In this document: piece after piece, positions 18,985 through 47,014 of the stretch
Layout of the letters: every line of letters starts with the position of its first letter
Position numbering within the stretch: position 1 is the first letter of the stretch
Virus record (IMG/VR): IMGVR_UViG_3300018022_000004
Origin: a virus
DNA: 64,000 nucleotides
Reading direction: 5' to 3' (one strand)
The notes under the pieces: model-generated
Databases searched by the model: none
What the model was told of the DNA's origin: nothing
What the model saw: the letters and a program-made list of their open reading frames with translations, nothing else
Translations under genes and position numbers: made by a program

Positions 18985-19030
18985 AAAAAAAGTTCCCGAG
19001 AATCTCGACTACCGGTGGTATTATATAGGT
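18985..19030 (+). promoter_or_regulatory. promoter of tRNA operon 1
   Basis: A7 tract, then CGACTACCGGTGGTATTATATAG; near-identical motif at 41809-41834. Confidence 0.7.
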
Positions 19031-19043
19031 GGAGAAAGCGGCC

Positions 19044-19136
19044 ATGAACAGCCTATCGTACAACTCGTCGTCCTTGAGCTATAGCAGCTCCCTGCTTAGC
19101 AGCTCCCTCGTGTTGTCCGATGGCTGGAACGGGTAA
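19044..19136 (+). CDS. attenuator leader peptide 1, MNSLSYNSSSLSYSSSLLSSSLVLSDGWNG
   Basis: GGAG SD at 19031-19034; 13 Ser, 6 Leu, 2 Tyr in 30 codons; precedes a Tyr/Leu/Ser-only tRNA operon. Confidence 0.85.
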   Translation: MNSLSYNSSSLSYSSSLLSSSLVLSDGWNG

Positions 19137-19168
19137 AGGCCAGCAAAATCGGGCAAGACGAGGCGGCT
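19098..19168 (+). promoter_or_regulatory. antiterminator helix of attenuator 1
   Basis: 19106-19121 pairs with 19148-19163 (15/16 incl. one G-U); inner GCTGG/CCAGC hairpin; overlaps the terminator 5' arm. Confidence 0.75.
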
Positions 19169-19190
19169 GAGAAGCCGCCGTTTTTGTTTT
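19162..19190 (+). terminator. attenuator terminator 1
   Basis: GGCGGCT-GAGA-AGCCGCC then GTTTTTGTTTT. Confidence 0.9.
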
Positions 19191-19201
19191 ATGGGGTTTT
19201 T

Positions 19202-19290
19202 GCCAGTGTGGGCGAGAGGCTAATGCCAGCAGACTGTAAATCTGCCGCCCCTTGCGGGCTTCGCAGGTTCAAATCCTGCCGCTGGCACCA
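19202..19290 (+). tRNA. tRNA-Tyr(GTA)
   Basis: Loop CTGTAAA; long V arm; CCA. Confidence 0.95.
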
Positions 19291-19329
19291 AGTTTCAGGG
19301 CACGGGAGATGCGTGCCCGGATAGGATTA

Positions 19330-19417
19330 GCCGGGCTGGCGGAACGGGAGACGCAGGGCACTTAAAACGCCTGGGCCTTCAAAAGCCATGGGGGTTCGAT
19401 TCCCTCGCCCGGTACCA
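19330..19417 (+). tRNA. tRNA-Leu(TAA)
   Basis: Loop CTTAAAA; long V arm; CCA. Confidence 0.92.
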
Positions 19418-19423
19418 AGGTCT

Positions 19424-19510
19424 GCGGTCGTGTCGGAATAGGCAGACGAGCAAGGTTGAGAGCCTTGTGCCTGCAAGGGCGTGGGGGTTCGATTCCCCCC
19501 GACCGCACCA
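19424..19510 (+). tRNA. tRNA-Leu(GAG)
   Basis: Loop TTGAGAG; CCA. Confidence 0.93.
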
Positions 19511-19515
19511 AGACT

Positions 19516-19602
19516 GCGAGGGTGTCGTAACTGGCAGCCGAGCGGGTCTGAGAGGCCCGTGGGGGAGACCCCGTGAGGGTTCGAGTCCCTCCCTTCGCAC
19601 CA
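19516..19602 (+). tRNA. tRNA-Leu(GAG), second
   Basis: Loop CTGAGAG; CCA. Confidence 0.92.
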
Positions 19603-19609
19603 GGTCTAT

Positions 19610-19698
19610 GCCGGGATGGCGGAACAGGCAGACGCACTGGGCTTAGAACCCAGCACCCCGCAAGGGGCATGGGGGTCCGAGTCCCCCTCCCGGTACCA
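19610..19698 (+). tRNA. tRNA-Leu(TAG)
   Basis: Loop CTTAGAA; T loop TCCGAGT; CCA. Confidence 0.93.
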
Positions 19699-19708
19699 AG
19701 TTCGTCCT

Positions 19709-19795
19709 GCGGATGTGTCGGAACTGGCAGACGAGCAGCGCTCAGAACGCTGTGTGGGCAACCATGTGGAGGTTCGAGTCCTCTCATCCGCACCA
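19709..19795 (+). tRNA. tRNA-Leu(CAG)
   Basis: Loop CTCAGAA; CCA. Confidence 0.94.
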
Positions 19796-19801
19796 GGCTT
19801 T

Positions 19802-19888
19802 GCGGTCGTGCTGGAAATGGCAGACGGGCGGGCCTCAGAAGCCCGTGTGGGAGACCACGTGGAGGTTCGATGCCTCTCGGCCGCACCA
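19802..19888 (+). tRNA. tRNA-Leu(CAG), second
   Basis: Loop CTCAGAA; CCA. Confidence 0.93.
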
Positions 19889-19894
19889 AGACTT

Positions 19895-19981
19895 GCCGCA
19901 GTGGCGGAACAGGCAGACGCACACGGCCCAAACCCGTATGCCGTCAAAGGCGTGGGGGTTCGACTCCCCCCTGCGGCACCA
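19895..19981 (+). tRNA. tRNA-Leu(CAA) with C33
   Basis: Loop CCCAAAC; Leu-type D and V arms; CCA. Confidence 0.85.
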
Positions 19982-20032
19982 GGCTCGCAACCGACTGTCC
20001 GATTTTCGGACATGCCGGTCGCACAGGTTCAA

Positions 20033-20126
20033 GGAGAGGTGGCCGAGCGGCCTAAGGCGCTGGTTTGCTAAACCAGAGTACGGGCTAAACCCCGTACCGT
20101 GGGTCCGAATCCCACCCTCTCCGCCA
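20033..20126 (+). tRNA. tRNA-Ser(GCT)
   Basis: Loop TTGCTAA; G73; CCA. Confidence 0.95.
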
Positions 20127-20132
20127 TTTCAG

Positions 20133-20220
20133 GGAAGGACCCGCTGCGTGGGCGGCAACTGGCTTTGAACCCCAGGGCACGGGTGACACCGTGGGCGTTC
20201 GACTCGTCGTCCTTCCGCCA
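20133..20220 (+). tRNA. tRNA-Ser(TGA), 8/4 fold
   Basis: GGAAGGAC/GTCCTTCC acceptor; 4-bp T stem; loop TTTGAAC; G73 CCA. Confidence 0.82.
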
Positions 20221-20267
20221 ACCTTTACAGGCAGGGGCATATTTACACCTGCTGTAAAGAATGCTTT

Positions 20268-20358
20268 GGAGAGGTGCCCGAGCGGCCTAAGGGGCACGCC
20301 TGGAAAGCGTGTAGTCCTCAAAAAGGACTCGTGGGTCCGAATCCCACCCTCTCCGCCA
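20268..20358 (+). tRNA. tRNA-Ser(GGA)
   Basis: Loop CTGGAAA; G73 CCA. Confidence 0.95.
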
Positions 20359-20365
20359 TTCCCCC

Positions 20366-20451
20366 GGAGGGTACTGCCGAACGGCCGGCAACTGGCCTCG
20401 AAAGCCAGGGCAGGGCAAAACCTGGGGGTTCGATTCCTCTGCCCTCCGCCA
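20366..20451 (+). tRNA. tRNA-Ser(CGA), 8/4 fold
   Basis: GGAGGGTA/TGCCCTCC acceptor; 4-bp T stem; loop CTCGAAA. Confidence 0.85.
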
Positions 20452-20463
20452 AGCTAACCTAAC

Positions 20464-20496
20464 GGGCCCTCCTGCGGGAGGGCCTTTCTATTTTTA
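20464..20496 (+). terminator. terminator closing tRNA operon 1
   Basis: GGCCCTCC-TGCG-GGAGGGCC then TTTCTATTTTT. Confidence 0.85.
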
Positions 20497-20518
20497 AGAG
20501 TATACCATCCCCTTAAGC

Positions 20519-20770
20519 ATGAGGATAGCTCTTGGCATAGCGGCCTCGTGCATCAACCTGCTTGCCATGTTTATCCTGGGCCGGAGGGGCAAGAGGAGAC
20601 GCCTGGAGGGATGGTGTATCTATATCCTTAGCCAGGCCTGCTGGATAGCGTACGCCCTGGTCGGGCACCTCTACGAGATACTGCTGCTGAACCTGGGGGC
20701 GACCGCTATAGCCGTGGACAACCTGTGGTCCCTGAGGCACAGGATGAACGGGCATGACAACGGCCGGTGA
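20519..20770 (+). CDS. small membrane protein, PnuC-like fragment
   Basis: Three hydrophobic segments; GW...W..Y pattern. Confidence 0.5.
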   Translation: MRIALGIAASCINLLAMFILGRRGKRRRLEGWCIYILSQACWIAYALVGHLYEILLLNLGATAIAVDNLWSLRHRMNGHDNGR

Positions 20771-20979
20771 GGTATTATAGGGATATGGTACCCACACAGG
20801 AAGACGTGAACTCCTACCTGGAAACCCTGGCCCACCTGGGCAGGGACGTGCTCTCCGAGGATTCCGAGGTCCTGGCCATGGAGTTCCTGCTGGGCACCAC
20901 GGACGGGGGGTACCTCCCCTGGACGTTCGTCCCCTACATAGACGAGTGGAAGTCCCACGCCCAGGCCCCCTGCTGCTAG
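20767..20979 (+). CDS. small hypothetical protein
   Basis: 70-aa ORF. Confidence 0.45.
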   Translation: MRYYRDMVPTQEDVNSYLETLAHLGRDVLSEDSEVLAMEFLLGTTDGGYLPWTFVPYIDEWKSHAQAPCC

Positions 20980-21026
20980 CCCGCCCGCCACTATAACGCA
21001 TATACATACCCTAATCAGGAGAGCAT

Positions 21027-21503
21027 ATGGCTACCGAGGTCAAGGCACCGGGGGAGTACAACAAGCTCCTGGCCCCCAAGATATTCCTGGGCGGGGCGAT
21101 AGACCAGGGGGAGGCCGAGGACTGGCAGTCGAAGGTCGTCAGGGGCCTAGAGGGCATAGACTGCCTCGTCCTCAACCCCCGCAGGGCGGACTGGGACCCC
21201 GACTGGGAGCAGTCCATCGACAGCCCGGAGTTCAGGGAGCAGGTCGAGTGGGAGCTTAAGGCGCAGGAGGAGGCGGACCTCAACGTCTACGTCCTCCTGG
21301 AGGACAGCAAGGGCCCCGTGACCATGCTGGAGATAGGGCTGTTCGCCGGGAAGGAGAGCGTCCTCTGCATCGAGGAGGGCTTCTACCGCAGGGGCAACCT
21401 CGAAATCGTGGCCCAGCGCTACAACATCCCCATCTACAGGAAGCTGGACGACATGCTGGCCGACCTCCGCACGGCGCTGGGGAAGCGGGCCAGGGAGGGC
21501 TAG
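21027..21503 (+). CDS. nucleoside 2-deoxyribosyltransferase-like domain protein
   Basis: IFLGGAI...DWQ...LNPRR.DWD...QVEWEL...TMLEIGL. Confidence 0.85.
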   Translation: MATEVKAPGEYNKLLAPKIFLGGAIDQGEAEDWQSKVVRGLEGIDCLVLNPRRADWDPDWEQSIDSPEFREQVEWELKAQEEADLNVYVLLEDSKGPVTMLEIGLFAGKESVLCIEEGFYRRGNLEIVAQRYNIPIYRKLDDMLADLRTALGKRAREG

Positions 21504-22547
21504 GTGCTCTTCCGCCTCACCTCGGGGTTCCTCGTCACGGCCAGGCTGCCCAGGCGGCCCGGCCTGGTCGGCCCCCTCTACCACGGCACCACATACACCT
21601 TCGACGAGTTCAAGCTGCCGGAGGACACCGGGATGGGGCATACGGGGCTGGGGATACACTTCGGCACCGCCCAGCAGGCGGGTGCGAGGGCCATGGGGTA
21701 CTTCGGCAGGGAGGAGGAGGGGGCCAGCATCCACCCTGTCTACCTAAGCGTAGGGAAGCCCCTCCGCATGCGGGACCTCTACAACTGGGGCCCTGTCGCC
21801 GTCTCCAACGAGCTTTACCTCGAACACATAATCAGCCACGACCAGCACAGGCATATCCTGGCCCTCGGATACGGGCCAGAGGGGTATGCCAGGGCCTACT
21901 CCCTCCTCCGCCAGTGGCTCGACGAGGCAGGGTACGACGCCATAGTCTACCGCAACAGGACAGAGGGGCCGGGGGACAGCTATATCGTATGGCATACGAA
22001 GCAGATAGTCCCTGCCCTCTCGAAGGCCGCCGCCCTGCGCAAGCGCCCGGGCCTCATCGGCCCCGTGTACCACGGCACCAGGAGCATGTTCGACAGGTTC
22101 TCCCTGCCCGAGGAACTCAGTGACGAAGGGGACCTGGGGATACACTTCGGAAACCCGAGGCAGGCCGGGCACAGGGCGCTGTACGACTGGGACCCGTCGA
22201 AGGGGGATGTCCTGACCGCCGAGCCAGGAGCGAACATTCGCCCTGTCTACCTGGACGTCAAAAAGCCCCTGCGCATGTACGACGCCGTCGTCTGGACCCC
22301 CAGGAGGGTGGCGCTCGGCCTCTTCGAGCGGAGGCTGATGACCCGTGACGAGATGCAGAAGTTTACCAGGTCGAGGGCGGTCCCCACGAAGGAGTGGTAC
22401 CACAGCAGCCACAGGCTCCTCCGCAAGTGGATAGAGGACAGGGGTTACGACTCCGTCGTCTACCGCAACGAGTACGAGGGGGGAGGCGACAGCTATATCG
22501 TCTGGCACCCGGAGCAGATAGTCCCTGCCCTGGAGGCACGGCAATGA
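21504..22547 (+). CDS. tandem ADP-ribosyltransferase-like (ART-PolyVal type) domains
   Basis: Two copies of YHGT...GIHFG...PVYL..KPL...GYD.IVYRN..EG.GDSYIVWH..QI. Confidence 0.7.
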   Translation: MLFRLTSGFLVTARLPRRPGLVGPLYHGTTYTFDEFKLPEDTGMGHTGLGIHFGTAQQAGARAMGYFGREEEGASIHPVYLSVGKPLRMRDLYNWGPVAVSNELYLEHIISHDQHRHILALGYGPEGYARAYSLLRQWLDEAGYDAIVYRNRTEGPGDSYIVWHTKQIVPALSKAAALRKRPGLIGPVYHGTRSMFDRFSLPEELSDEGDLGIHFGNPRQAGHRALYDWDPSKGDVLTAEPGANIRPVYLDVKKPLRMYDAVVWTPRRVALGLFERRLMTRDEMQKFTRSRAVPTKEWYHSSHRLLRKWIEDRGYDSVVYRNEYEGGGDSYIVWHPEQIVPALEARQ

Positions 22548-22954
22548 GCCTCTACATGCTGTCCTGGGAGGAGCTGGGGGAGGAGTACCTCTACCACGGC
22601 ACCACCCGCAGGGCGCTGGAGGCCGCCCTTGCCTCGGGGGGCACCCTGAAGGGCCCTAGCTGGTGGGGGACGGAGAGGGTGGCGGACTACTATGCGGAGG
22701 TGGCGGCAGAGGAGGAGGGGCCGGAGGGGGAGGAGGCCATCGTCAGGGTCCCCCTGTCTAGGTTCAACCGAAGGCTCCTGAAGCCGGACCATAACTCCAT
22801 AGCCGAACCCCTGACCTACACGCTGGGTGCCGACGAGAAGGACCTGTGGAGGCAGTGGCAGAAGGCCAGGGGGACCTGGCGGGACTGCCTGGGGATATAC
22901 GAGTCGGTAAGGTACGAGGCCCCCCTGCGGATAGCCGAGGAAGACGCCCTGTAA
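22544..22954 (+). CDS. small ART-fold-like protein
   Basis: LYHGT N-terminal motif; ATGA overlap. Confidence 0.45.
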   Translation: MSLYMLSWEELGEEYLYHGTTRRALEAALASGGTLKGPSWWGTERVADYYAEVAAEEEGPEGEEAIVRVPLSRFNRRLLKPDHNSIAEPLTYTLGADEKDLWRQWQKARGTWRDCLGIYESVRYEAPLRIAEEDAL

Positions 22955-22987
22955 AGAGGAATCTTCCGACTTCCAGTATTATTAGCG
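22955..22987 (+). promoter_or_regulatory. putative promoter
   Basis: TTCCGACTTCCAGTATTATTAG resembles the tRNA-operon promoter motif. Confidence 0.45.
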
Positions 22988-23081
22988 GGGAAGAGCGTAT
23001 TCCCCAGCGTGGCCCCCAGCCAGGCCATCCAACCGGCTTTAAGCTAAGGCAAGCCCTTAGCCGGTGGGCTTGGAGGTAACA

Positions 23082-24065
23082 ATGGTGTATTCCCACCAGT
23101 TCGTCGCAGCAGTCAAGGTAAACGGCAGCATCCTGAGGGAGGCAGCGGGCAAGGTGGCCGTACCGTTCGGCTCCGAGTACGCAGTCTACCTGAAGAACCT
23201 GGCCTCCGTGCGGGCCATGGCAAGGGTCGAGATAGACGGCACGGACGCAACCGAGGGGACGTGGCTCGTGCTCGCCCCCAACAGCAGCATAGACCTGGAG
23301 AGGTTCATCCGCAACGGGAACCTCCAGGGCGGCAACCGCTTCAAGTTCATCAAGAGGACCCCGAAGATTGAGGAGGCGAGGGGGATAAAGGGGGAGGACG
23401 GGCTTGTGCGCATCGAGTACAAGTTCGAGAAGCTCCCTGACCCCGAGGTCCACACCCACCACTACCACCACCACCACGACTACCCCTACTACTACCCCTA
23501 CTACTACTACCCTTACTGGCCCTGGTGGAGCTACCCGAACTACCCCTACACGACCTGGACCGCCAACAGCAGCAGCCTGAGCAACAACGTCAGCTTCAGC
23601 GCCAACAACAGCGGCCTGAACGGTGCCTCGGGCGGCAGCGGTCATGGGCACGGCGTGCTGCGGAGCAAGGGCCTCTCCGGCTCGGCGATGATGGCCTCGT
23701 TCACGAAGTCCGCCGACTCCACCCCCACCGTCAACGTCAACACCACGGAGAGCCTCCAGGCCAAGGGGCTGGAGCCGTCCGTACACTGCTTCGCCATGCA
23801 GGAGGTACGGGAGGCGTCGGCGGAGGAGCCGGGCATCACCGTGCCGGGAAGCCAGAGCAACCAGTCGTTCTACTCGGCCGGCTGGTTCCAGACCGAGGAG
23901 CAGACGCACGTCCTCGTGCTCAGGCTGGTCGGGGCCGTAGGCGGGAAGGCGGTCACCAGGGCCGTCACCGTCAAGACCAAGGCGAAGTGCCAGACGTGCG
24001 GCACCAGCAACAAGTCCGGGGTGAAGTTCTGCAAGGAGTGCGGCACCTCCCTGGAGATAATCTAG
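23082..24065 (+). CDS. phage protein with His/Tyr/Pro tract and C-terminal zinc ribbon
   Basis: GGAGG SD; VPFGSEY.VYLKN...VEIDG; C-terminal CxxC...CxxC. Confidence 0.8.
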   Translation: MVYSHQFVAAVKVNGSILREAAGKVAVPFGSEYAVYLKNLASVRAMARVEIDGTDATEGTWLVLAPNSSIDLERFIRNGNLQGGNRFKFIKRTPKIEEARGIKGEDGLVRIEYKFEKLPDPEVHTHHYHHHHDYPYYYPYYYYPYWPWWSYPNYPYTTWTANSSSLSNNVSFSANNSGLNGASGGSGHGHGVLRSKGLSGSAMMASFTKSADSTPTVNVNTTESLQAKGLEPSVHCFAMQEVREASAEEPGITVPGSQSNQSFYSAGWFQTEEQTHVLVLRLVGAVGGKAVTRAVTVKTKAKCQTCGTSNKSGVKFCKECGTSLEII

Positions 24066-24185
24066 GCAAGACAGGCTTGGCGGGCCTGCGCTAGCGGCAG
24101 ATGGTAAGCTGCCAGGCTAGAGTACCGGTAACGCTCGACTCTGCTGGAAACAGGCCCGCCAGGACCACCTTCCGAGGAGGAAGCC

Positions 24186-24518
24186 ATGACAATGTTCCTA
24201 TGGCCCCCGCCAGGGGTACCGTACCCGTGGCCGGAGCCGCCATACCCGTACCCGCCTTGCCCCAGGCCTCCCAGGCCAATCCCTATAGTCCCGAAGCCCA
24301 TCCTTCCGCCCCGCAGGCCCCGTCCCCCCAGGCCCGTGCGCCCGTGCCCATGGTGCCCGCCCAGGCACCCCCGGCACCCCTGGCCGGACGACGACCCCTA
24401 CGGGCAGTGTACCCTCGGCAAGCCGCTCTGGATGGTCATCCCGCCCGAGGGGGCGCACATATCCTGCCCCGTCCACCCCGAGGGCCACCATGTCTTCGGC
24501 CCCAGCGCAAGATGGTAG
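24186..24518 (+). CDS. Pro-rich small protein
   Basis: GAGGA SD; 110 aa. Confidence 0.5.
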   Translation: MTMFLWPPPGVPYPWPEPPYPYPPCPRPPRPIPIVPKPILPPRRPRPPRPVRPCPWCPPRHPRHPWPDDDPYGQCTLGKPLWMVIPPEGAHISCPVHPEGHHVFGPSARW

Positions 24519-24529
24519 TATTAGGATGC

Positions 24530-25006
24530 ATGAGAGACGCCTGGACGTACGACAGCGTGCCCTGGGACGCATGCCCCGAGGGCAAGGAGCGCTACTGCGT
24601 CGGCTTCATGTTCAGCCCCTACATGGAGGTAGTGGCCCTCATCCGCAAGAAGCGCCCCGAGTGGCAGGCAGGCCTGCTCAACGGCGTGGGCGGCAGGCTC
24701 CGGGAGGGGGAGACCCCCCTGGAGGGCATGCGGCGTGAGTTCAGGGAGGAGGCGGGGGTGGCATGGGACGAGTGGATGCCCCTGGCCCGCCTGGACTTCC
24801 CCGAGGCCACGGTATGGTTCTTCTGGGCCAGGGGGGGCTGCGTGTGGGAGTGCCGCACCCAGACGGACGAGGCGGTATCCATACACAGGACCAGGGACGT
24901 GCAGGACCTCGACCTGGTGCCCAACGCCCGCTGGCTCATACCCATGGCCACATCCTTCACCAGGGGGGAGGGGGCGAGGTGCTTCACGGTGCAGGAGGTT
25001 TACTGA
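24530..25006 (+). CDS. NUDIX hydrolase
   Basis: GGRLREGETPLEGMRREFREEAGV Nudix box. Confidence 0.9.
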   Translation: MRDAWTYDSVPWDACPEGKERYCVGFMFSPYMEVVALIRKKRPEWQAGLLNGVGGRLREGETPLEGMRREFREEAGVAWDEWMPLARLDFPEATVWFFWARGGCVWECRTQTDEAVSIHRTRDVQDLDLVPNARWLIPMATSFTRGEGARCFTVQEVY

Positions 25007-25785
25007 TGGAGCAGCAGGGGCTAGACCCGGCCAGCAAGACATGGCCGGGCAGGTACGGCAGGCCGGTGTGCATCCCGGCAGAGATAGTATTCCACAGGCT
25101 CAAGCGCCTCGACATGTCAACACAGGAGGCAGACCCCCTCTACGGGCGGGCAGCCAGGGAGCTTGCCATGGTCCCCGGCCTCAGGAACAGCCTGGAGCTG
25201 TACCGTGACTACAGCTACGTCCTGGGGAAGATGGTGCTGAGGCTTACAGGGTGGGTGCTGAGGGACGAGCACCAGCACGAGGTAGTGACCAAGACCATGG
25301 CCATAAGGGTCCCCGCCTCCTGGTGGCAGATGCTCAAGCGGGACTGCCTCCCCGCCTGGCTCGTAAGGAGGTTCCCCGTAAGGACCAGGGGCATCACGGA
25401 TACCTTTGCCTTCGAGCAGGAGGTAAGGGTCTGCCCGCACGCCGACGTGGCCTTCAGCGACCCGGCGCACATAGAGTTTATGACCTTCAGGCCGGGGCCG
25501 TGCGGCTCACCGGAGGACGGGGTGCTGTACGCCATCGAGGGGGAGTCGGACTCCTACCAGAGGCATATGCTACGGAACTTCTGCGGAGCGATAGACCGCA
25601 GGCGGCCGGACTATATCGAGGCACGGGTGCCCTTCGGCCAGACGGCTGGATTCCTAGACTGGCTGTCCTACCAGAAGGGCCTTGTATTCAGGAGGATAGA
25701 TGAGCGAGACAATGACGCTGGACACGGTGAGGGACACGCTGCTGGGGTGGCTCAAGGAGATAGCGACCCGCCACGGCAGCCTTGA
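25006..25785 (+). CDS. hypothetical protein
   Basis: TGATG coupling. Confidence 0.55.
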   Translation: MEQQGLDPASKTWPGRYGRPVCIPAEIVFHRLKRLDMSTQEADPLYGRAARELAMVPGLRNSLELYRDYSYVLGKMVLRLTGWVLRDEHQHEVVTKTMAIRVPASWWQMLKRDCLPAWLVRRFPVRTRGITDTFAFEQEVRVCPHADVAFSDPAHIEFMTFRPGPCGSPEDGVLYAIEGESDSYQRHMLRNFCGAIDRRRPDYIEARVPFGQTAGFLDWLSYQKGLVFRRIDERDNDAGHGEGHAAGVAQGDSDPPRQP

Positions 25786-26245: not shown

Positions 26246-26253
26246 GGAGGACC

Positions 26254-26895: not shown

Positions 26896-26896
26896 G

Positions 26897-27558: not shown

Positions 27559-27588
27559 GCAATTCTCCCCCCCTTATTAGAGGGGCCA

Positions 27589-29356: not shown

Positions 29357-29359
29357 GCC

Positions 29360-30715: not shown

Positions 30716-30773
30716 AGAATCTCTCCCTATGTAAAGGGTGGAAAGTCGTTCTTTCCGGATGGTATTAGGCAGC

Positions 30774-35319: not shown

Positions 35320-35347
35320 GGAGGGCGAGAAGACTATAACCTGCCCT

Positions 35348-36569: not shown

Positions 36570-36582
36570 GGAGGGAAGCAGA

Positions 36583-40742: not shown

Positions 40743-40939
40743 GGGAATGCGAAAAACCGTAATAGCCGTCCAGCTAAGGATAGCGGAGGTAGAGACGGGC
40801 TGGGGCAAGCGGCTGGCCCAACTGTGCAAGAGCGTGTGCGAGGGAGCAATCCTGGGGAAGGAGCTGGACATCTACGAGTCCTCGGCCTCGGCCTACGTAG
40901 ACGACAGTGCCCAGAGCCAAGCAAAGGAGGAAGGAAGCC

Positions 40940-41476
40940 ATGGGTCTTAGCAGGGAGCAAGCGTTCGAGGTAATCAAGAGGGAGAGGGAGTACCAGGACA
41001 GGGTGTGGCCGAGGGACGGCCACCCGCTGGTCAAGCAGTACGACTACACTGCCCCGCACCTCCTCATGCTGGAGGACTACTACGACGAGGCCAGAAGGAA
41101 GTGGAGGAAGTCCGTGGACGAGGTGGACGTCCTCAGGACCATCGGCAAGATGGCGACCATAGCCTACCGGGCACTGACGGAGGTTGTGCAGGCAAACGGG
41201 AGCAGGGGCCTTGCCGTGCCCGTGGCCCTGGTCAACGAGGCCAGGGACCGCCAGGACAGGGAGCACCCCAGGACCAAGGACAACGCCGGGCAGTACAAGT
41301 TCGCCGCCCCGCATGTCTACCTCCTGGGCCAGTACTTGGGGCACCTCGGAAACCGCTGGTACAGGGGCGACCGTGACGGGGTGGTAAACGGCCTCGTGGA
41401 AGTCACTGCCATATGCGTCCGGGCGCTAGAGGAGATAGAGGGCCCGGACCTGCTCTTCGTCGGGCTGCGGGACTAG
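40940..41476 (+). CDS. internally duplicated MazG-like all-alpha protein
   Basis: Two repeats of ER.YQD/ARDRQD...APH...KMATIAYRAL/EVTAICVRAL. Confidence 0.55.
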   Translation: MGLSREQAFEVIKREREYQDRVWPRDGHPLVKQYDYTAPHLLMLEDYYDEARRKWRKSVDEVDVLRTIGKMATIAYRALTEVVQANGSRGLAVPVALVNEARDRQDREHPRTKDNAGQYKFAAPHVYLLGQYLGHLGNRWYRGDRDGVVNGLVEVTAICVRALEEIEGPDLLFVGLRD

Positions 41477-41501
41477 AAAAGGCCCCCAGGAGGGGAAAGC
41501 G

Positions 41502-41789
41502 ATGCCGAAGCTGATATGGCCCATGCCCGTGACGGGGAACCCCATGGGGATATGGGGGATAGCCAAGGAGTTCGCCACGGTGGCGGAGGCCCAGGCATGG
41601 GTGAGGGAGTACCGCCTGGACGCTGAGAGAGAGGGAATGCTCCTGGTGTCCGGGGGCATGGTCTACAGGCCTACCGAGGAGGGCTTCGCCTCGGCAAGGC
41701 AGTTCGAGGGGGCAGGGGGGCCGACAGGCCCCACAGGCCCATCCAGACCGGAGCCGCCGAGGAAGCCGCACCTGGACGGTACCTGGTAA
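41502..41789 (+). CDS. hypothetical protein
   Basis: GGAGG SD. Confidence 0.6.
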   Translation: MPKLIWPMPVTGNPMGIWGIAKEFATVAEAQAWVREYRLDAEREGMLLVSGGMVYRPTEEGFASARQFEGAGGPTGPTGPSRPEPPRKPHLDGTW

Positions 41790-41794
41790 GGCAA

Positions 41795-41836
41795 GATTTC
41801 CCCGGGTTTTCCGACTACCGGAGGTATTATATAGAT
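41795..41836 (+). promoter_or_regulatory. promoter of tRNA operon 2
   Basis: TTTTCCGACTACCGGAGGTATTATATAG, near-identical to 19003-19028. Confidence 0.72.
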
Positions 41837-41919
41837 GAAAGGCTGGTCACTCAGGGCCGGCAGGGACGGCTGGGAGCCGGACGCAAGTGTTACCCGGTCA
41901 GCCGCCCGAAGATTGGTGG

Positions 41920-42012
41920 ATGATGCGATTCAGGAACCCCAACCCGCAGATGCATTGGCAGCCTAAGCGGAATACCCGCTCGGGCACCGTTGGGCCTCCT
42001 ATCGCAGGCTAG
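41920..42012 (+). CDS. attenuator leader peptide 2, MMRFRNPNPQMHWQPKRNTRSGTVGPPIAG
   Basis: First 18 codons use only M,R,F,N,P,Q,H,W,K, the operon-2 tRNA set; SD is weak (GGTGG close to ATG). Confidence 0.82.
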   Translation: MMRFRNPNPQMHWQPKRNTRSGTVGPPIAG

Positions 42013-42051
42013 CTGAGATTCCAAGGCGATTGAAGTGAAGAGGCCCACCGG
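41987..42051 (+). promoter_or_regulatory. antiterminator helix of attenuator 2
   Basis: CCGTTGGGCCTC (41987-41998) pairs with GAGGCCCACCGG (42040-42051), 11/12; inner ATCGC/GCGAT; covers most of the terminator 5' arm. Confidence 0.8.
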
Positions 42052-42080
42052 GTGATGAACCTGATGGGCTTTTTGGTTTT
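42041..42080 (+). terminator. attenuator terminator 2
   Basis: GCCCACCGGGT-GATGA-ACCTGATGGGC then TTTTTGGTTTT. Confidence 0.85.
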
Positions 42081-42124
42081 ATGGGGATTAAGTCGTGGCG
42101 TGGGTACCTTCCGCCATGCAGAGT

Positions 42125-42201
42125 GTGGCCGAGGCCGAAGTCGTCGAGGCGCTAGGCTGTGAACCTAGTCTAAGAGGGTCCGAGTCCCTCCGGTCACCCC
42201 A
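42125..42201 (+). tRNA. tRNA-His(GTG), no encoded G-1
   Basis: Loop CTGTGAA; C73; T at -1; atypical D loop. Confidence 0.85.
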
Positions 42202-42281
42202 ATCAAGCTGGCAGACCCGTATGACCGTTCCGGGTACTAAGAGCCAAAGGTCGTTAATCATGGCCGCCAGCAAGGTCTTTT

Positions 42282-42358
42282 GGTCCCGTCGCCCAGCGGA
42301 CTAGGGCGCTGCGCTCCGAACGCAGAGGTCGTGGGTCCGAATCCCACCGGGACTTCCA
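42282..42358 (+). tRNA. tRNA-Arg(CCG)
   Basis: Loop CTCCGAA; CCA. Confidence 0.93.
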
Positions 42359-42439
42359 GATTGCGTGGGTGAATCCCCTTGCAGGGGGAGGGATAGGCGG
42401 CCCCAGGCCCAGGGCACGGCGACCCACGCAGAGAGTTTT

Positions 42440-42518
42440 GGCCCCGTAGCTCAGCCTGGACTAGAGCAGCGGTCTACGAAACCGAAGGTCGAGGGTTCAA
42501 ATCCCTCCGGGGCTTCCA
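42440..42518 (+). tRNA. tRNA-Arg(ACG)
   Basis: Loop CTACGAA; CCA. Confidence 0.95.
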
Positions 42519-42613
42519 TCTTGCGCAGGTAGGGTGGCCACAGGGTGAGCAGCGGGAGGCATCCCGAGGACATCTGCAAGACCCCTTATACCATGCCTGC
42601 ACCAGATTATCAG

Positions 42614-42690
42614 GCCCCCGTGGCCCAGACGGATAGGGTACCGGTCCTCGAAACCGGACGCCGAGGGTTCGACTCCCTCCGGGGGTTCCA
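42614..42690 (+). tRNA. tRNA-Arg(TCG) with C33
   Basis: CCGGT-CCTCGAA-ACCGG. Confidence 0.88.
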
Positions 42691-42774
42691 GGTTTGTGGT
42701 GGGTGGTCACGCCGTTGACAACGCCGATGGGCGGACGAGGCGACTGGCCGGGGCGTCCCGCCCGAACAGATTGC

Positions 42775-42861
42775 TGGGGTGTAGGCGACGTTGGTAAAGC
42801 CACTTGACTGTTAATCAAGCGCCTTGCGGCACCGGGGGTTCGATTCCTCCCGCCCCAGCCA
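42775..42861 (+). tRNA. tRNA-Asn(GTT) with long variable arm
   Basis: Loop CTGTTAA; V arm GCC-TTGC-GGC; G73 CCA. Confidence 0.85.
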
Positions 42862-42962
42862 AAGATTGCCGTCCCGACCGTACAGCGGGAAGACGTGTTG
42901 CCACTACCGAAGCAGGACGTCATTGACTAGGTCATAATGTGGCCGGACGGCAACGGGTTAGG

Positions 42963-43039
42963 CCCGTTTAAGCCGATGCGGTGCATGGCGCTCCCCTGAA
43001 AAGGGAGAGAACCCCGTTCGACTCGGGGAGGCGGGACCA
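42963..43039 (+). tRNA. tRNA-Phe(GAA), atypical
   Basis: Loop CTGAAAA; A8; CCCCG/CGGGG T stem; CCA. Confidence 0.8.
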
Positions 43040-43046
43040 AGTTTAT

Positions 43047-43123
43047 CAGGGTGTAGCTCAGCCTGGCAGAGCGCATGCTTGGGGTGCATGAGGCCGTGGG
43101 TTCAAATCCCTCCATCCTGACCA
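43047..43123 (+). tRNA. tRNA-Pro(GGG)
   Basis: Loop TTGGGGT; CCA. Confidence 0.93.
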
Positions 43124-43131
43124 AGTTCCTG

Positions 43132-43210
43132 GCGTGCCAGAGGGTTCGACTCCCGAGGCCAACGGCGCTGTTAGCAAAGGGTTCGACTCCCGAGGCCACC
43201 GGAGGCACGC
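43132..43210 (+). repeat. double T-arm element: 21-nt direct repeat inside a closing stem
   Basis: AGGGTTCGACTCCCGAGGCCA at 43141 and 43178; GCGTGCC/GGCACGC closing stem. Confidence 0.75.
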
Positions 43211-43213
43211 AGA

Positions 43214-43289
43214 CGGTGTGTAGCTCAGCGGCTAGAGCACTCGGTTTGGGGCCGAGGGGTCGTGGGTCCGAATCCCACCACGCCGACCA
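43214..43289 (+). tRNA. tRNA-Pro(TGG)
   Basis: Loop TTTGGGG; CCA. Confidence 0.93.
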
Positions 43290-43296
43290 AGTTTAT

Positions 43297-43373
43297 CAGG
43301 GTGTAGCTCAGCCTGGCAGAGCGCTGGTTTCGGGAACCAGAGGCCGAGAGTTCAAATCTCTCCATCCTGACCA
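43297..43373 (+). tRNA. tRNA-Pro(CGG)
   Basis: Loop TTCGGGA; near-duplicate of Pro(GGG). Confidence 0.94.
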
Positions 43374-43380
43374 AGGTTGT

Positions 43381-43455
43381 TCCGAGGTCGTCTAACCGGT
43401 AGGACGCATGGCTCTGAACCATGAAATGCGGGTTCGACCCCAGCTCTCGGAACCA
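43381..43455 (+). tRNA. tRNA-Gln(CTG)
   Basis: Loop CTCTGAA; T-stem mismatch; CCA. Confidence 0.85.
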
Positions 43456-43557
43456 AGGCTCGGGGAGGGCGAGTTAGCGTGGCCTATGGGCCACTTTATA
43501 GACAGGATGCCTCCCCACTATGCTAGGAAGCAGCTCGGAAGTGGGATGCTTCAGAGT

Positions 43558-43632
43558 TCAGGAGTAGCTCAACGGTAGAGCGTCCGGCTGTTAACCGGAA
43601 TGTTGGGGGTCCGATTCCCTCCTCCTGAGCCA
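43558..43632 (+). tRNA. tRNA-Asn(GTT)
   Basis: Loop CTGTTAA; short V; G73 CCA. Confidence 0.94.
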
Positions 43633-43639
43633 AGCTCAA

Positions 43640-43717
43640 GGGAGCGTAACTCAAAGGGGCAAGAGAGCCAGCCTTTTAAGCTGGTGCGTGCGGGCACCCA
43701 ATCCGCCGCTCCCACCA
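43640..43717 (+). tRNA. tRNA-Lys(TTT) with aberrant T loop
   Basis: CCAGC-CTTTTAA-GCTGG; T loop CACCCAA instead of TTCRANT. Confidence 0.75.
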
Positions 43718-43724
43718 AGGACTA

Positions 43725-43802
43725 GCCGCCGTGGCGCAACTGGACCAGCGCACCCGGCTCTTACCCGGAGGGTTGGAGGTTCGAGTCCTCTCGGCGGCAC
43801 CA
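43725..43802 (+). tRNA. tRNA-Lys(CTT)
   Basis: Loop CTCTTAC; CCA. Confidence 0.9.
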
Positions 43803-43808
43803 AGATTC

Positions 43809-43885
43809 GGGTCGGTAGCTCAACTAGGCAGAGCAAGGGCCTCTTAAGCCCGAGGTTGAGGGTTCGATTCCCTCCCGGCCTACCA
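43809..43885 (+). tRNA. tRNA-Lys(CTT), second
   Basis: Loop CTCTTAA; CCA. Confidence 0.92.
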
Positions 43886-43891
43886 AGAAAG

Positions 43892-43952
43892 CCCGGCGAT
43901 GTGGGGTTCAAGTCCCCACCTTGAGTGTCGTTCAACTGGCTAGGATACCGGG
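43892..43952 (+). ncRNA. circularly permuted tRNA-like module (T arm, mini-hairpin, D arm)
   Basis: CCCGG...GGGGTTCAAGTCCCC...GTTCAACTGGCTAGGAT-A-CCGGG. Confidence 0.55.
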
Positions 43953-43959
43953 GGCATCG

Positions 43960-44034
43960 GCCGATGGAGCTAGGATGGTATAGCGCCTGCCTGAAGAGCA
44001 GGAGTGACCGGTTCGATTCCGGGCATCGGCACCA
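43960..44034 (+). tRNA. tRNA-Phe(GAA), second
   Basis: Loop CTGAAGA; CCA. Confidence 0.9.
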
Positions 44035-44044
44035 AGTTTGTTGT

Positions 44045-44118
44045 TCCGAGGTCGGCTAACGGTAGGCCGCTGCGCTCTGGACGCAGCTATCGGGGTCCGA
44101 ATCCCTGCCTCGGAACCA
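44045..44118 (+). tRNA. tRNA-Gln(CTG), second
   Basis: Loop CTCTGGA; CCA. Confidence 0.9.
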
Positions 44119-44125
44119 GGACTAC

Positions 44126-44202
44126 AGCGGGGTGGAGCAGCCTGGTAGCTCGTGAGGCTCATAACCTCAAGGTCGCCGGTTCAAATCCGGCCCCCGCAAC
44201 CA
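44126..44202 (+). tRNA. tRNA-Met(CAT), initiator-like
   Basis: xGCGGGGTGGAGCAGCCTGGTAGCTC fMet-type body; 1:72 mismatch. Confidence 0.9.
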
Positions 44203-44294
44203 TTCGGGTCGGGATGCCAGCCGGGAGACCGTGACTGGATGCCAAGGGTATACGGCAAAGCCCGTAGAGAGCAGGAACCGGCCCGCAGCATTGA

Positions 44295-44371
44295 TGCGGG
44301 GTAGAACTCTGGTGAGTTTAGGGGTCTCATAAGCCTCTTACAGGTGGGTCCGATTCCCATTCCCGCTACCA
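44295..44371 (+). tRNA. tRNA-CAT (Met/fMet-like; Ile2 not excluded)
   Basis: Loop CTCATAA; T1.T72 mismatch; CCA. Confidence 0.8.
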
Positions 44372-44376
44372 TCTCA

Positions 44377-44452
44377 GGGGCGCAGGGTAGCTCAGTCTGG
44401 TAGAGCAGCCCGGAAAGGCTGGTCGGAGGTTCAAATCCTCCCCCGAGGCCCC
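44377..44452 (+). ncRNA. tRNA mimic with truncated anticodon arm and extended acceptor, no CCA
   Basis: Canonical D and T arms; only 13 nt between them (AGCC-CGGAAA-GGCT hairpin). Confidence 0.6.
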
Positions 44453-44458
44453 GTAGCA

Positions 44459-44554
44459 GGCACGCCGATTCGGAGAGGACCGCAGGCGGCTAACCCAGGA
44501 GCAGCGTACGCAACCTCCCGGACCCCGCAGGCAAGTCGCTGGACAAGGCGTGCC
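44459..44554 (+). ncRNA. putative ~96-nt structured RNA
   Basis: Perfect GGCACGCC/GGCGTGCC closing stem. Confidence 0.4.
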
Positions 44555-44565
44555 GAGGATTACGT

Positions 44566-44643
44566 GGCGGCGTAGCTCAGTCGGCAGAGCCGGGGTCCCA
44601 TAAGCCCTGTGAGTCGGAGGTTCGAGTCCTCTCGCCGCTACCA
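44566..44643 (+). tRNA. tRNA-Met(CAT), elongator-like, C33
   Basis: GGCGGCGTAGCTCAG body; loop CCCATAA. Confidence 0.85.
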
Positions 44644-44644
44644 G

Positions 44645-44835
44645 GATGCGGAGGGCCGCCGTCCACAGACGGGCGGCTGTGGCTCAGTACCGTAGCCGGG
44701 CCTGCTAGCGGGCGAGGCTACGGGCCACGTCCGGTTAGCTCCGGACCTCTACGAGAGTCGAGGGCCGCAGACAGTTGCACAGCGGCAGCCCGGTACCCAT
44801 CCGGGTGTAGCGAGTCGGCATGCTACGGCCTTCGA
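44645..44835 (+). ncRNA. putative multi-hairpin RNA (~190 nt)
   Basis: Run of hairpins: CCGCCGTC/GACGGGCGG, CGTAGCC/GGCTACG, TCCGG/CCGGA, GCCGC/GCGGC, CCCGG/CCGGG. Confidence 0.4.
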
Positions 44836-44840
44836 GCTTT

Positions 44841-45045
44841 GCCCGTGTATGCGAACAGGCACAGCGGCGTACAACGAAGAGAACGCCTCGGTAGGAGCGA
44901 GTTGCGGAGGAACCGAAAGGGGCGGGACGCCCGGAGGCCAGGGACAATCTGGCCACCCTACGGGGTGTAGGGAATCACGTTATCGCCTACCGAAGCAGTC
45001 CCCGCAAGGGACTGTATGCGGGTTCGATTCCCGCCACGGGCACCA
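44841..45045 (+). ncRNA. 205-nt tRNA-Leu-like RNA with a 106-nt inserted domain
   Basis: GCCCGTG/CACGGGC acceptor, A73, CCA; Leu-type D arm; long V arm; canonical T arm; non-canonical anticodon arm. Confidence 0.7.
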
Positions 45046-45048
45046 AGC

Positions 45049-45121
45049 TGGACGCCAGAGATGCGGGTCCGAATCCCGCAGGCACACCGTGCTGCGTAGC
45101 CTTGATGGTAGCAGTGGCCAG
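45049..45121 (+). ncRNA. second permuted tRNA-like module
   Basis: T arm GCGGG-TCCGAAT-CCCGC, closed hairpin, D-like loop with GG, flanks CTGG..CCA/TGGCCAG. Confidence 0.4.
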
Positions 45122-45179
45122 GCTCCTAGGCACCTGGCCGTGCCTTCGTTCAACAGGAAGGACGCTGGCCCTGTTTCCA

Positions 45180-45254
45180 GGCCTGGTAAGCTAACTGGCA
45201 AACTGCCGGTCTCCAAAACCGGACTTAGGGGTTCAAATCCTCTCCAGGTCGCCA
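45180..45254 (+). tRNA. tRNA-Trp(CCA)
   Basis: Loop CTCCAAA; G73 CCA. Confidence 0.92.
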
Positions 45255-45259
45255 AGTCT

Positions 45260-45463
45260 ATGGAAGAAGGGATGCTAGCAGAAGCGTTCGGGAGAATCCT
45301 GAGGTTCCCCCTCAGCCCGGAGGTCGTGATAGTGGGCAGGGAGGTATGGGACAGGCTGCCCGAGGCCGAGGCCCGGATTGTGGAGTTCGACGGGTTCAGG
45401 CACCTGGCGGCTGAGCATAACGGCACCCTCTTCCTCCACCCCCTCTCGGAGGCGGGCGACTGA
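45260..45463 (+). CDS. small hypothetical protein within the tRNA array
   Basis: 67-aa ORF between the two Trp tRNAs. Confidence 0.45.
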   Translation: MEEGMLAEAFGRILRFPLSPEVVIVGREVWDRLPEAEARIVEFDGFRHLAAEHNGTLFLHPLSEAGD

Positions 45464-45470
45464 CTATTGC

Positions 45471-45557
45471 AGGGGCGTGGCCCAGCGGCAACGGCAGCGG
45501 TCTCCAAAACCGCCACGCTACGGCGTTTCGGGGGTTCGAGTCCCTCCGCCCCTGCCA
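45471..45557 (+). tRNA. tRNA-Trp(CCA) with long variable arm
   Basis: Loop CTCCAAA; V arm ACGC-TACG-GCGT; G73 CCA. Confidence 0.85.
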
Positions 45558-45559
45558 AC

Positions 45560-45582
45560 TTTCTGAGGTATTATATAGGTGA
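45560..45582 (+). promoter_or_regulatory. internal promoter
   Basis: GAGGTATTATATAG, identical to the 41821-41834 core. Confidence 0.6.
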
Positions 45583-45618
45583 GCGGTTTTCTGTGCCCCT
45601 TAGTAGGGGGGACGACCT

Positions 45619-46170
45619 ATGAGCCACGACTGCCTGATACTCGACATGAACTGGACGCCGGTCGGCTTCTGCTCCTGGCAGGAGGCGGTCAGGCTGTGGG
45701 TAAAGGACCGTGCCCGGATAGTCAAGGAGGACGAGGCGGGCAGGGTGCTGCACAGCCCCTCCTTCGAGATGGGCATGCCCAGGGTCATCCGGGTGCGGAA
45801 CGCCTGGGTACGGCGCAGGCGGCAGTCCGTCCCCTGCACGAGGCGCAACCTGTTAGTCCGTGACAACGCCGCCTGCCAGTACTGCGGCAGGACCATCAGG
45901 ACGCACGAGTACACCACGGACCACGTCGTGCCCATCTGCCAGGGCGGAAGGACGACCTGGGAGAACACGGTCACGGCATGTATGAAGTGCAACAAGCACA
46001 AGGGCGGCAGGACGCCGGAGCAGGCGGGCATGGAGCTTCTCAGCACGCCCAAGGCCCCCAAGGCAGCGGACCCCCGCTTCAACTTCAAGCTGCACATCAA
46101 GACCATGCGGCCGGAGTGGAAGGACTGGGAGTCCTGGCTGTACTGGAACGCCGTCTTAGACAAGGAGTAA
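45619..46170 (+). CDS. HNH endonuclease
   Basis: CQYCG...TDHVVP...GG.TTWEN.VTAC.KCN..KG. Confidence 0.9.
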   Translation: MSHDCLILDMNWTPVGFCSWQEAVRLWVKDRARIVKEDEAGRVLHSPSFEMGMPRVIRVRNAWVRRRRQSVPCTRRNLLVRDNAACQYCGRTIRTHEYTTDHVVPICQGGRTTWENTVTACMKCNKHKGGRTPEQAGMELLSTPKAPKAADPRFNFKLHIKTMRPEWKDWESWLYWNAVLDKE

Positions 46171-46221
46171 GGCTCGTGGCCCCGTGGGCCAGCCATATAC
46201 GGGGCACAAGATTAGAGTTCC

Positions 46222-46298
46222 ACCCCTGTAGCTCAGCGGACTAGAGTGCCGGTCCTCTAAACCGGGTGACGTGGGTCCGAATCCCACCAGGGGTACCA
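46222..46298 (+). tRNA. tRNA-Arg(TCT) with C33
   Basis: CCGGT-CCTCTAA-ACCGG; CCA. Confidence 0.88.
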
Positions 46299-46332
46299 AG
46301 ATGCCCTAAAGCCAGGGCGAAGGAGCAAGCCT

Positions 46333-46608
46333 ATGCACATACGGTCCCAAGCGCTGGCAGTAGTGGTAGTCCTTTTCGTGCTGGCAGTCGTGCTCCTGTG
46401 GCCGGTAAAGCGCCCGGCGAGCCACTGCCCAAAGCCAGCAGGCGGATGCAGGACGTCCGTGCAGTCGAAGGGGGGAGACGACGATGTCCCCCTGGCATAC
46501 TGGATAGTGATTACCTCGTCCGCCGAGGAAGAAGCAGTGCAGGAAGAGGAGACGCCATCGGATACCGACGTTGATGCTGGCGACGCCGGGGATGGCGGCG
46601 GAGACTAA
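46333..46608 (+). CDS. small membrane/secreted protein with acidic tail
   Basis: GGAG SD; N-terminal hydrophobic helix. Confidence 0.5.
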   Translation: MHIRSQALAVVVVLFVLAVVLLWPVKRPASHCPKPAGGCRTSVQSKGGDDDVPLAYWIVITSSAEEEAVQEEETPSDTDVDAGDAGDGGGD

Positions 46609-46614
46609 GGTTTT

Positions 46615-46690
46615 GGCCCCGTAGCTCAGCGTATAGAGCGGCCGCCTCCTAAGCGGCAGGTCGTGGGTTAGACTCCCACCGGGGCTTCCA
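46615..46690 (+). tRNA. tRNA-Arg(CCT), T loop TTAGACT
   Basis: Loop CTCCTAA; A56; CCA. Confidence 0.88.
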
Positions 46691-46707
46691 TTTTACCAGG
46701 AGGACAG

Positions 46708-46929
46708 ATGGCGGGGACGGGGACGACTAGCACGGCATGGTTCGGCTTCTGGCTCGGGGCTGGCCTGACAGGAGCGTTCATCCTGCTTATGGCCCTGCTC
46801 CGCTACGGCTGGAAGGGGCTGGAGTGGCTCCTCCGTTCGTCCTCGTACAGGCCCGTCGCCTGCCTGCTCCTGGGGATGCTTTTCCTGGGGGCCTACAGGC
46901 TCCTCAGGAGGAGGCTAGGCCAGCAGTAG
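46708..46929 (+). CDS. small two-TM membrane protein
   Basis: AGGAGG SD; hydrophobic. Confidence 0.6.
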   Translation: MAGTGTTSTAWFGFWLGAGLTGAFILLMALLRYGWKGLEWLLRSSSYRPVACLLLGMLFLGAYRLLRRRLGQQ

Positions 46930-46935
46930 ATGCGT

Positions 46936-47014
46936 GTCCCCGTAGCTCAGCCCGGACTAGAGCAGCGGTTTCCTAAACCGAAGGCCGCAGGTTCAAATCC
47001 TGCCGGGGATACCA
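46936..47014 (+). tRNA. tRNA-Arg(CCT), second
   Basis: Loop TTCCTAA; CCA. Confidence 0.93.

Follow-up and report, generated by a model that had tools for sequence, protein, structure and literature searches.

Matched leader reading frames and putative attenuators ahead of the tRNA arrays of a jumbo phage from peat

Transfer RNA (tRNA) genes of phages have been debated for fifty years as a means of codon compensation or of escape from defence, and have been treated as constitutively expressed cargo. A stretch of viral DNA of 64,000 nucleotides (IMG/VR record IMGVR_UViG_3300018022_000004; the whole stretch is referred to here as the window) raises the question of whether such genes could be transcribed on demand. 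ARAGORN finds 35 tRNAs in it, all on the plus strand and in two blocks, and in front of each block lie the same promoter motif, a short open reading frame (ORF) rich in codons for the tRNAs that follow, and a terminator hairpin. We consider it likely that each tRNA array is a transcription unit of its own under a ribosome-mediated (leader-peptide) transcription attenuator; the phage would then probably make each set of tRNAs only when the matching codons are read slowly. The window comes from a jumbo phage from peat that is a distant relative of the Tunturiibacter phage Tunturi_5.

Array content and leader composition

The promoters, leaders, hairpins and arrays of the two window modules are all on the plus strand. 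Array 1 (19202-20451) consists of one tRNA-Tyr, seven tRNA-Leu and four tRNA-Ser, precisely the class II tRNAs of bacteria, those whose variable arm is long, and is followed at once by a closing terminator (20464-20495). Array 2 (42125-47014) holds 23 tRNAs recognised by ARAGORN (His, six Arg, two Asn, two Phe, three Pro, two Gln(CUG), two Lys, three Met and two Trp) and one more, at 43640-43714, found by Rfam only (39.5 bits); the anticodon loop of the latter is that of Lys-UUU, its T arm is unusual, and relaxing the settings of ARAGORN did not recover it. Short ORFs and an HNH endonuclease gene (45619-46170) are interspersed among the tRNAs of array 2, and the arrays of Tunturi_5 likewise contain HNH genes. 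A simple scan finds no terminator inside array 2. In agreement with the first-pass annotation of this DNA, which had reported no tRNA for Ala, Cys, Asp, Glu, Gly, Thr or Val and no clear one for Ile, neither ARAGORN nor Rfam locates a tRNA for any of these eight amino acids in the 64-kb window.

The two leader ORFs have 30 codons each and are both preceded by a Shine-Dalgarno sequence. Leader ORF 1 (19044-19136) has GGAG 9 nt upstream of its start and contains 13 Ser, 6 Leu and 2 Tyr codons. Leader ORF 2 spans 41920-42012, and its second ATG, at 41923, is the start conserved in all lineages of relatives. The same annotation had described two operons with non-overlapping amino-acid sets and a matched leader for each, and this description holds for Tyr/Leu/Ser on the one hand and His/Arg/Asn/Phe/Pro/Gln(CUG)/Lys/Met/Trp on the other. 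In leader 1, 21 of 24 consecutive residues belong to {Y,L,S} (binomial P = 3e-13 against the window's own proteins), whilst in leader 2 the first 18 residues are all drawn from M, R, F, N, P, Q, H, W and K, with all nine present (P = 6e-9). Each leader ranks first for its own amino-acid set among the 908 ORFs of at least 15 codons in the six frames of the window.

The match extends from amino acids to codons. The 6 Leu positions of leader 1 use 5 different codons (P = 0.004 against genome usage) and both Tyr codons occur; in leader 2 there are 15 different codons among 18 (P = 0.003, likewise against genome usage), including four Arg and three Pro codons. Array 1 has 10 distinct anticodons, and its leader holds a cognate codon for 8 of them; for array 2 the count is 13 of 15-16. 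Among near relatives, the differences between module-1 leaders are synonymous or Ser-to-Ser, the latter including a change of TCC to AGC.

So many codon-like triplets for the downstream tRNAs could also be expected of a leader RNA that senses tRNA by direct base pairing, without translation, in the manner of a T-box riboswitch. T-boxes do resemble the arrangement seen here in coupling tRNA status to terminator read-through upstream of translation-related genes. They bind a single uncharged tRNA directly, however, reading one specifier as against the 15-20 found here, and in the window leaders the triplets share one frame, lying between a Shine-Dalgarno sequence with its ATG and a stop codon, and substitutions are synonymous. 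There is no T-box motif in the leaders, and neither of them matches any Rfam family, whether T-box or other leader family, at the gathering threshold or at E<=1; nor do they have a sequence relationship to the classical attenuators. We regard sensing by direct pairing as very improbable.

Each leader stands behind a copy of the 23-nt motif CGACTACCGGNGGTATTATATAG, at 19006-19028 for module 1 and at 41812-41834 for module 2. These are the only two matches in the 64 kb, where 0 would be expected. The motif has the structure CGACTACCGG-N-GGTATTATATAG, in which TGGTATTAT looks like an extended -10 element; a reading as a T7-like promoter (CGACT...TATAG) was dropped in favour of this one, and both are putative. 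The same motif precedes tRNA arrays in dozens of contigs from IMG/VR and from peat metagenomes. The link to tRNA arrays is limited to the full 23-nt motif, since a weaker copy of its core precedes protein genes in a relative of 316,945 bp (99% complete, 54% GC, 60 tRNAs), referred to below as the 317-kb relative. An 18-nt promoter word gave 79 matches in genome contigs (L172-L250), mostly from Bacteroidota, which were treated as unrelated because no tRNA array lies behind any of them; one (L230) has a single tRNA-Pro behind the word, outside the module types described below. In these contigs the word may be a chance occurrence or an unrelated conserved element.

Two further RNA elements accompany the promoters. 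At 18610-18870, just upstream of module 1, the motif recurs in shortened form, CGACTACGGTATTCTATAG, and behind it comes ~230 nt of structured, GC-rich RNA that ends in a terminator (18836-18857). This RNA matches no Rfam family at E<=1 and, judged from its sequence, is probably a small RNA gene of no named family; in the 317-kb relative a comparable promoter and structured RNA lie ahead of the third module. In module 2, the structured 5' untranslated region of the leader (41838-41919) contains a hairpin at 41875-41903 (GAGCCGGACG...UGUUACCCGGUC) that is nearly unchanged in the 54% GC relative and could be a pause or processing signal.

Terminators, antiterminators and the position of the ribosome

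The attenuator terminator of module 1 (19162-19190) has a 7-bp GC stem, a GAGA loop and a U tract, and ends 12 nt before tRNA-Tyr. That of module 2, together with region 3 of the attenuator, occupies 42040-42080, with the stem at 42042-42069 followed by a U tract, and leaves ~45 nt to the first tRNA. The module-1 hairpin and the closing terminator of that module were recovered independently by a simple terminator scan. A simple scan shows no second promoter, and the gaps of 12 and ~45 nt between the leader terminators and the first tRNAs are too short to hold one; from the closeness of the terminators and the lack of another promoter, the arrays would be made by read-through only. The two terminators share the tail TTTT-A-TGGGG (19186-19197 and 42076-42087), and similar tails are seen in the fourth module of relatives and in module 3 of Tunturi_5.

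In both modules the terminator has a competitor. The antiterminator of module 1 (19092-19170) is built on a hairpin at 19106-19161, which takes in the stop codon and the final part of the ORF, and is lengthened where 19092-19105 pairs with the terminator's 5' arm. An alignment of four distinct module-1 variants reveals compensatory changes in the upper stem of this hairpin (GCTGG/CCAGC, GGTGG/CCACC and GGGGG/CCCCC). The extended antiterminator exceeds every terminator fold in stability by 1.4-6.1 kcal/mol in all four variants; provided that its 5' extension is free, it is the most stable fold in each of them despite the sequence change, and it is already complete when the terminator's 3' arm has yet to be transcribed. 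Module 2 has the textbook four-region layout of an attenuator: region 1 lies at 41938-41943 (CCCAAC) and region 2 at 41987-41998, the latter resembling the 3' arm of the terminator and able to pair with region 3.

The effect of ribosome position was modelled by placing a ribosome at each codon of the leader and computing the equilibrium fold of the RNA downstream of it, with the probability of the terminator stem as the readout. For module 1, stalls at codons 8-13 give a probability of 0.00-0.28, and positions from codon 18 up to the stop give 0.99. For module 2 it is 0.97 in the free RNA, falls to 0.00-0.02 at codons 13-15 and returns to 0.98 at the stop. Both modules show the same behaviour in the 54% GC relative. 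An equally sharp switch appeared in 3 of 150 dinucleotide shuffles of the leader for module 1 and in 1 of 150 for module 2. Two of the three leaders of Tunturi_5 also switch in this model.

Both window modules therefore have a translatable leader, codon enrichment, a terminator with no second promoter after it and a modelled antiterminator that depends on ribosome position. A mechanism of the following kind would fit them. Transcription would begin at the shared phage promoter and a ribosome would start on the 30-codon leader, written in the codons of the downstream tRNAs. If decoding is fast, the ribosome would reach the end of the leader and cover or unwind the antiterminator; with this structure lost, the terminator hairpin would form and the polymerase would halt before the first tRNA. 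Where any tRNA sampled by the leader is in short supply or uncharged, the ribosome would stall in the sensing stretch, the antiterminator would form first and the polymerase would continue into the array. As the products are the very tRNAs that are tested, each module would regulate its own share of the decoding set by negative feedback. Host and phage tRNAs would be sensed as one pool, so that the sensor would be as much a feedback loop on supply as a monitor of the host pool.

Four modules in relatives, and arrays of more distant phages

The window has a GC content of 64%, with its genes almost all on one strand, and is recognisable as part of a large phage from its genes for a T4 Rnl1-type RNA ligase, an SNF2 helicase, ThyX, a radical SAM protein and rIIA/rIIB. 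Tunturi_5, a 309-kb myovirus whose host is an acidobacterium from tundra soil (PMC11924767), has a helicase with 53.5% identity to the one in the window. No close phage was found in GenBank at the DNA level, where near and distant nucleotide searches matched only tRNA-sized stretches. The window stretch occurs in peat and wetland metagenomes from 23 studies, and the 63-64% GC lineage to which it belongs includes peat contigs ~99% identical to it.

Contigs bearing the promoter motif contain four types of array: the two of the window, a third for Val/Gly/Ala/Asp/Glu/Cys (with Ile-UAU in some) and a fourth for Ile(GAU)/Thr/Gln(UUG). In the 63-64% GC peat lineage all four stand behind an identical promoter, and one contig of the third type shares its sample with a contig 99.4% identical to the window. 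The leader of the third type is rich in Ala, Val, Gly, Asp, Glu and Cys and that of the fourth in Thr, Ile and Gln. The first-pass annotation had predicted that any third array would have a leader rich in A/C/D/E/G/I/T/V; such arrays, with matched leaders, do exist in relatives, but as two additional modules and not one. By eye, the third module follows the canonical 1:2, 2:3 and 3:4 arrangement; its terminator stem exists in three wholly different versions, depending on the lineage.

The 317-kb relative divides its tRNAs in the same four ways, each array having a matched leader. Matrices of leader codons against arrays are diagonal in both lineages, with values of 21/29, 20/29, 20/30 and 10/30 in the 63-64% GC lineage and 18/29, 22/28, 17/32 and 10/23 in the 317-kb relative. 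Of the 61 sense codons, 59-60 are covered by the four arrays together, with hardly any overlap between their sets. The phage family would thus run four loops of the kind outlined above, two of them in the window, which together take in nearly the whole genetic code. In the fourth type the leaders of six lineages keep their composition whilst the order of T, Q and I is permuted. Relatives also have a conserved gene for a 120-residue DUF6915 protein (L009:1854-2216, with homologues in L251-L259) between the Ile/Thr/Gln attenuator and the first tRNA-Ile, a position that would place it under the same control.

Gln and Ile are divided between modules by codon. For Gln, the leader before the array with Gln-CUG has CAG, and the leaders before Gln-UUG have mostly CAA. 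Two other proposed pairs did not stand. The Lys AAA codon had been taken to co-vary with tRNA-Lys(UUU), which was withdrawn when the Rfam-only tRNA of array 2 proved to be Lys-UUU, and Ile ATA was rejected as a partner of tRNA-Ile(UAU) because the two co-occur in only some lineages.

Division by codon bears on what is being sensed. A stalled ribosome cannot distinguish a missing amino acid from a missing tRNA, and the leaders might in principle respond to amino-acid starvation, the rise in tRNA being a general stress response. An extra tRNA, however, does not relieve a shortage of its amino acid, and sampling of isoacceptors at the level of single codons (four for Arg, five for Leu, CAA versus CAG) would be pointless for sensing an amino acid and apt for sensing individual tRNAs. 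We think starvation sensing improbable.

Tunturi_5 provides a test with a different deal of tRNAs. Its published description lists 43 tRNAs and no leaders (PMC11924767); we find roughly 40 tRNAs in three arrays, each preceded by a short ORF and a terminator. The arrays comprise Leu/Cys/Tyr/Ser, Asn/Gln/Gly/Thr/Pro/His/Ala/Phe and Trp/Asp/Met/Lys/Val/Arg/Glu/Ile/Gly, and 14/31, 24/36 and 33/48 of the codons of the respective leaders are for the leader's own array (P = 4e-4, 3e-4 and 5e-4; P > 0.8 for the other arrays). Taken over its first 17 codons, the first leader matches its own array with P = 2e-7. In this phage tRNA-Cys is grouped with the long-arm tRNAs, and it is in the sensing stretch of that leader alone that two Cys codons are found. 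The correlation of leader with anticodons, which the first-pass annotation had proposed to seek in other arrays, thus holds for the four leaders of the 317-kb relative and the three of Tunturi_5.

Similar arrangements may occur outside this family. The genome paper of the Caulobacter phage phiCbK lists its tRNAs and mentions neither attenuation nor leaders (PMC3556154). In phiCbK, short ORFs at 5541-5770 and 7342-7503 (L262) precede groups of tRNAs, with an annotated terminator after each; in the Caulobacter phage CcrRogue they lie at 3246-3383 and 5150-5245 (L264), with terminators read from the sequence. One of the ORFs is rich in Ser/Leu/Pro/Lys and stands before Pro, Lys, Leu and Ser tRNAs, and the other contains Q-F-V-Q-I-Q-V-V and is followed by Phe, Val, Ile and Gln tRNAs. 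Of three leader-like ORFs of the phiCbK type, two rank first for their own array, barely above the null (10 vs 9 and 9 vs 8), and CcrRogue is a counter-example in that a Ser-rich leader has been kept without Ser tRNAs. With statistics this weak for the phiCbK type, the generality of the design beyond the present phage family is a lead.

Several observations weigh against attenuation. Module 1 of Tunturi_5 shows no switch in the equilibrium folding model, and the Val/Gly/Ala and Ile/Thr/Gln modules of relatives switch weakly in it, the terminator probability staying at or above 0.6. In module 1 of the window, Ser and Leu codons 15-25 lie where a modelled stall favours termination. Each leader also has a few codons that belong to other modules, and ATA codons occur in the leaders of lineages in which tRNA-Ile(UAU) was not found. 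Finally, we know of no study of transcription-translation coupling in the presumed hosts, the Acidobacteriota.

The modules without a switch, together with the Ser-rich leader of CcrRogue whose Ser tRNAs are gone, are what would be expected if the hairpins were constitutive leaky terminators or processing signals and the ORFs incidental or coding for functional small peptides, with no control by decoding speed. Against this, the leaders conserve composition and not residue order across lineages, they change with the content of the array, and the alternative structures are conserved and seldom arise in shuffled sequences. For these reasons we favour a sensor over a peptide, and consider constitutive hairpins unlikely, if slightly less so than starvation sensing.

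Known systems and the possible role of the switch

The closest parallels to the proposed attenuators are the leader-peptide attenuators of enterobacteria (trpL, hisL, leuL, pheL, thrL and ilvGMEDA), which likewise consist of a promoter, a short enriched ORF and mutually exclusive terminator and antiterminator hairpins, with the position of the ribosome as the signal. Nearest among them are the multivalent thr and ilv leaders, in which, as here, several amino acids are represented in one leader. The enterobacterial systems regulate biosynthetic enzymes, whereas phage tRNA genes would be regulated here; moreover, a leader here represents up to nine amino acids and ~13 isoacceptors, and several units partition the whole code. 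The pheST attenuator of E. coli, with its pheM leader, reportedly senses tRNA charging through a leader peptide and controls phenylalanyl-tRNA synthetase. It resembles the present case in regulating a component of translation and differs from it in that the target is a synthetase for one amino acid instead of tRNA genes with direct feedback by the product. Full-text literature searches yielded no published account of tRNA arrays controlled by a leader peptide.

The anatomy, the codon match, the conservation, the co-variation of leader and array across lineages and the alternative structures can be read directly from the DNA; that leader translation controls read-through in vivo, and that the trigger is phage codon demand or the depletion or cleavage of host tRNA, is what we infer from them. 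The first-pass annotation had proposed that the phage monitors the charged-tRNA pool of the host through translation speed and expresses only the module needed; this system-level hypothesis is supported, every sequence-level test having matched it.

Phage tRNAs are known to replace or supplement those of the host, for example in T5 against the PARIS and retron effectors and in mycobacteriophages (PMC10264068, PMC11555353, PMC11464382). These studies address the roles of the tRNAs and do not describe codon-matched leaders or demand-dependent transcription, but they do establish that defences target tRNAs and that phage tRNAs can rescue infection. The same switch might then serve as a counter-defence, with the modules near-silent until a tRNA-cutting host nuclease, or a loss of tRNA induced by the phage, depletes one family and only the matching set is induced. 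In counter-defence of this type, the phage tRNA often has an anticodon loop that resists the cleaving nuclease. A modular split makes most sense with shortages that are specific to a family, and the T4 Rnl1-type RNA ligase in the window, as well as the tRNA ligase and CCA-adding enzyme in or beside the Tunturi_5 arrays, are hints in this direction, without showing it. On the other hand, no host nuclease is known for these phages, the borders of the modules follow tRNA class (the long-arm tRNAs are together) and so suggest ancestry more than known nuclease targets, and a plain loop of supply and demand fits the same anatomy, given that the leaders sample rare codons and that AGG makes up 50% of the Arg codons in the window's protein genes. 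A dedicated counter-defence is therefore possible but, in our judgement, rather doubtful.

The heavy use of AGG, at a GC content of 64%, goes together with two tRNA-Arg(CCU) and one tRNA-Arg(UCU) in the phage, and may point to a codon demand that a host does not meet. The RNA ligase and a calcineurin-like phosphoesterase (757-2016 and 11656-13044) may form a tRNA repair pair, and directly after array 1, at 21027-22547, lie a nucleoside 2-deoxyribosyltransferase-like gene and a gene for an ART-PolyVal ADP-ribosyltransferase.

A wider conjecture, to which we give somewhat less than even credence, is that these phages run a near-complete decoding set as independent closed loops, each testing about a dozen isoacceptors codon by codon and topping up only that subset, against the family-specific depletion of tRNAs by host immunity; the design may be general in tRNA-rich phages of unrelated hosts. 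For the attenuators themselves, a cultured relative, Tunturi_5 on Tunturiibacter, carries the system, so that the question is directly open to experiment. As a rule for annotation, what an array contains can be read from the leader in front of it, and the leaders would offer synthetic biology natural multi-codon sensors of tRNA availability. If the proposed mechanism is true, leader-peptide attenuation extends from metabolism to the translation apparatus, and phages measure decoding speed and regulate their supply of tRNA on demand.

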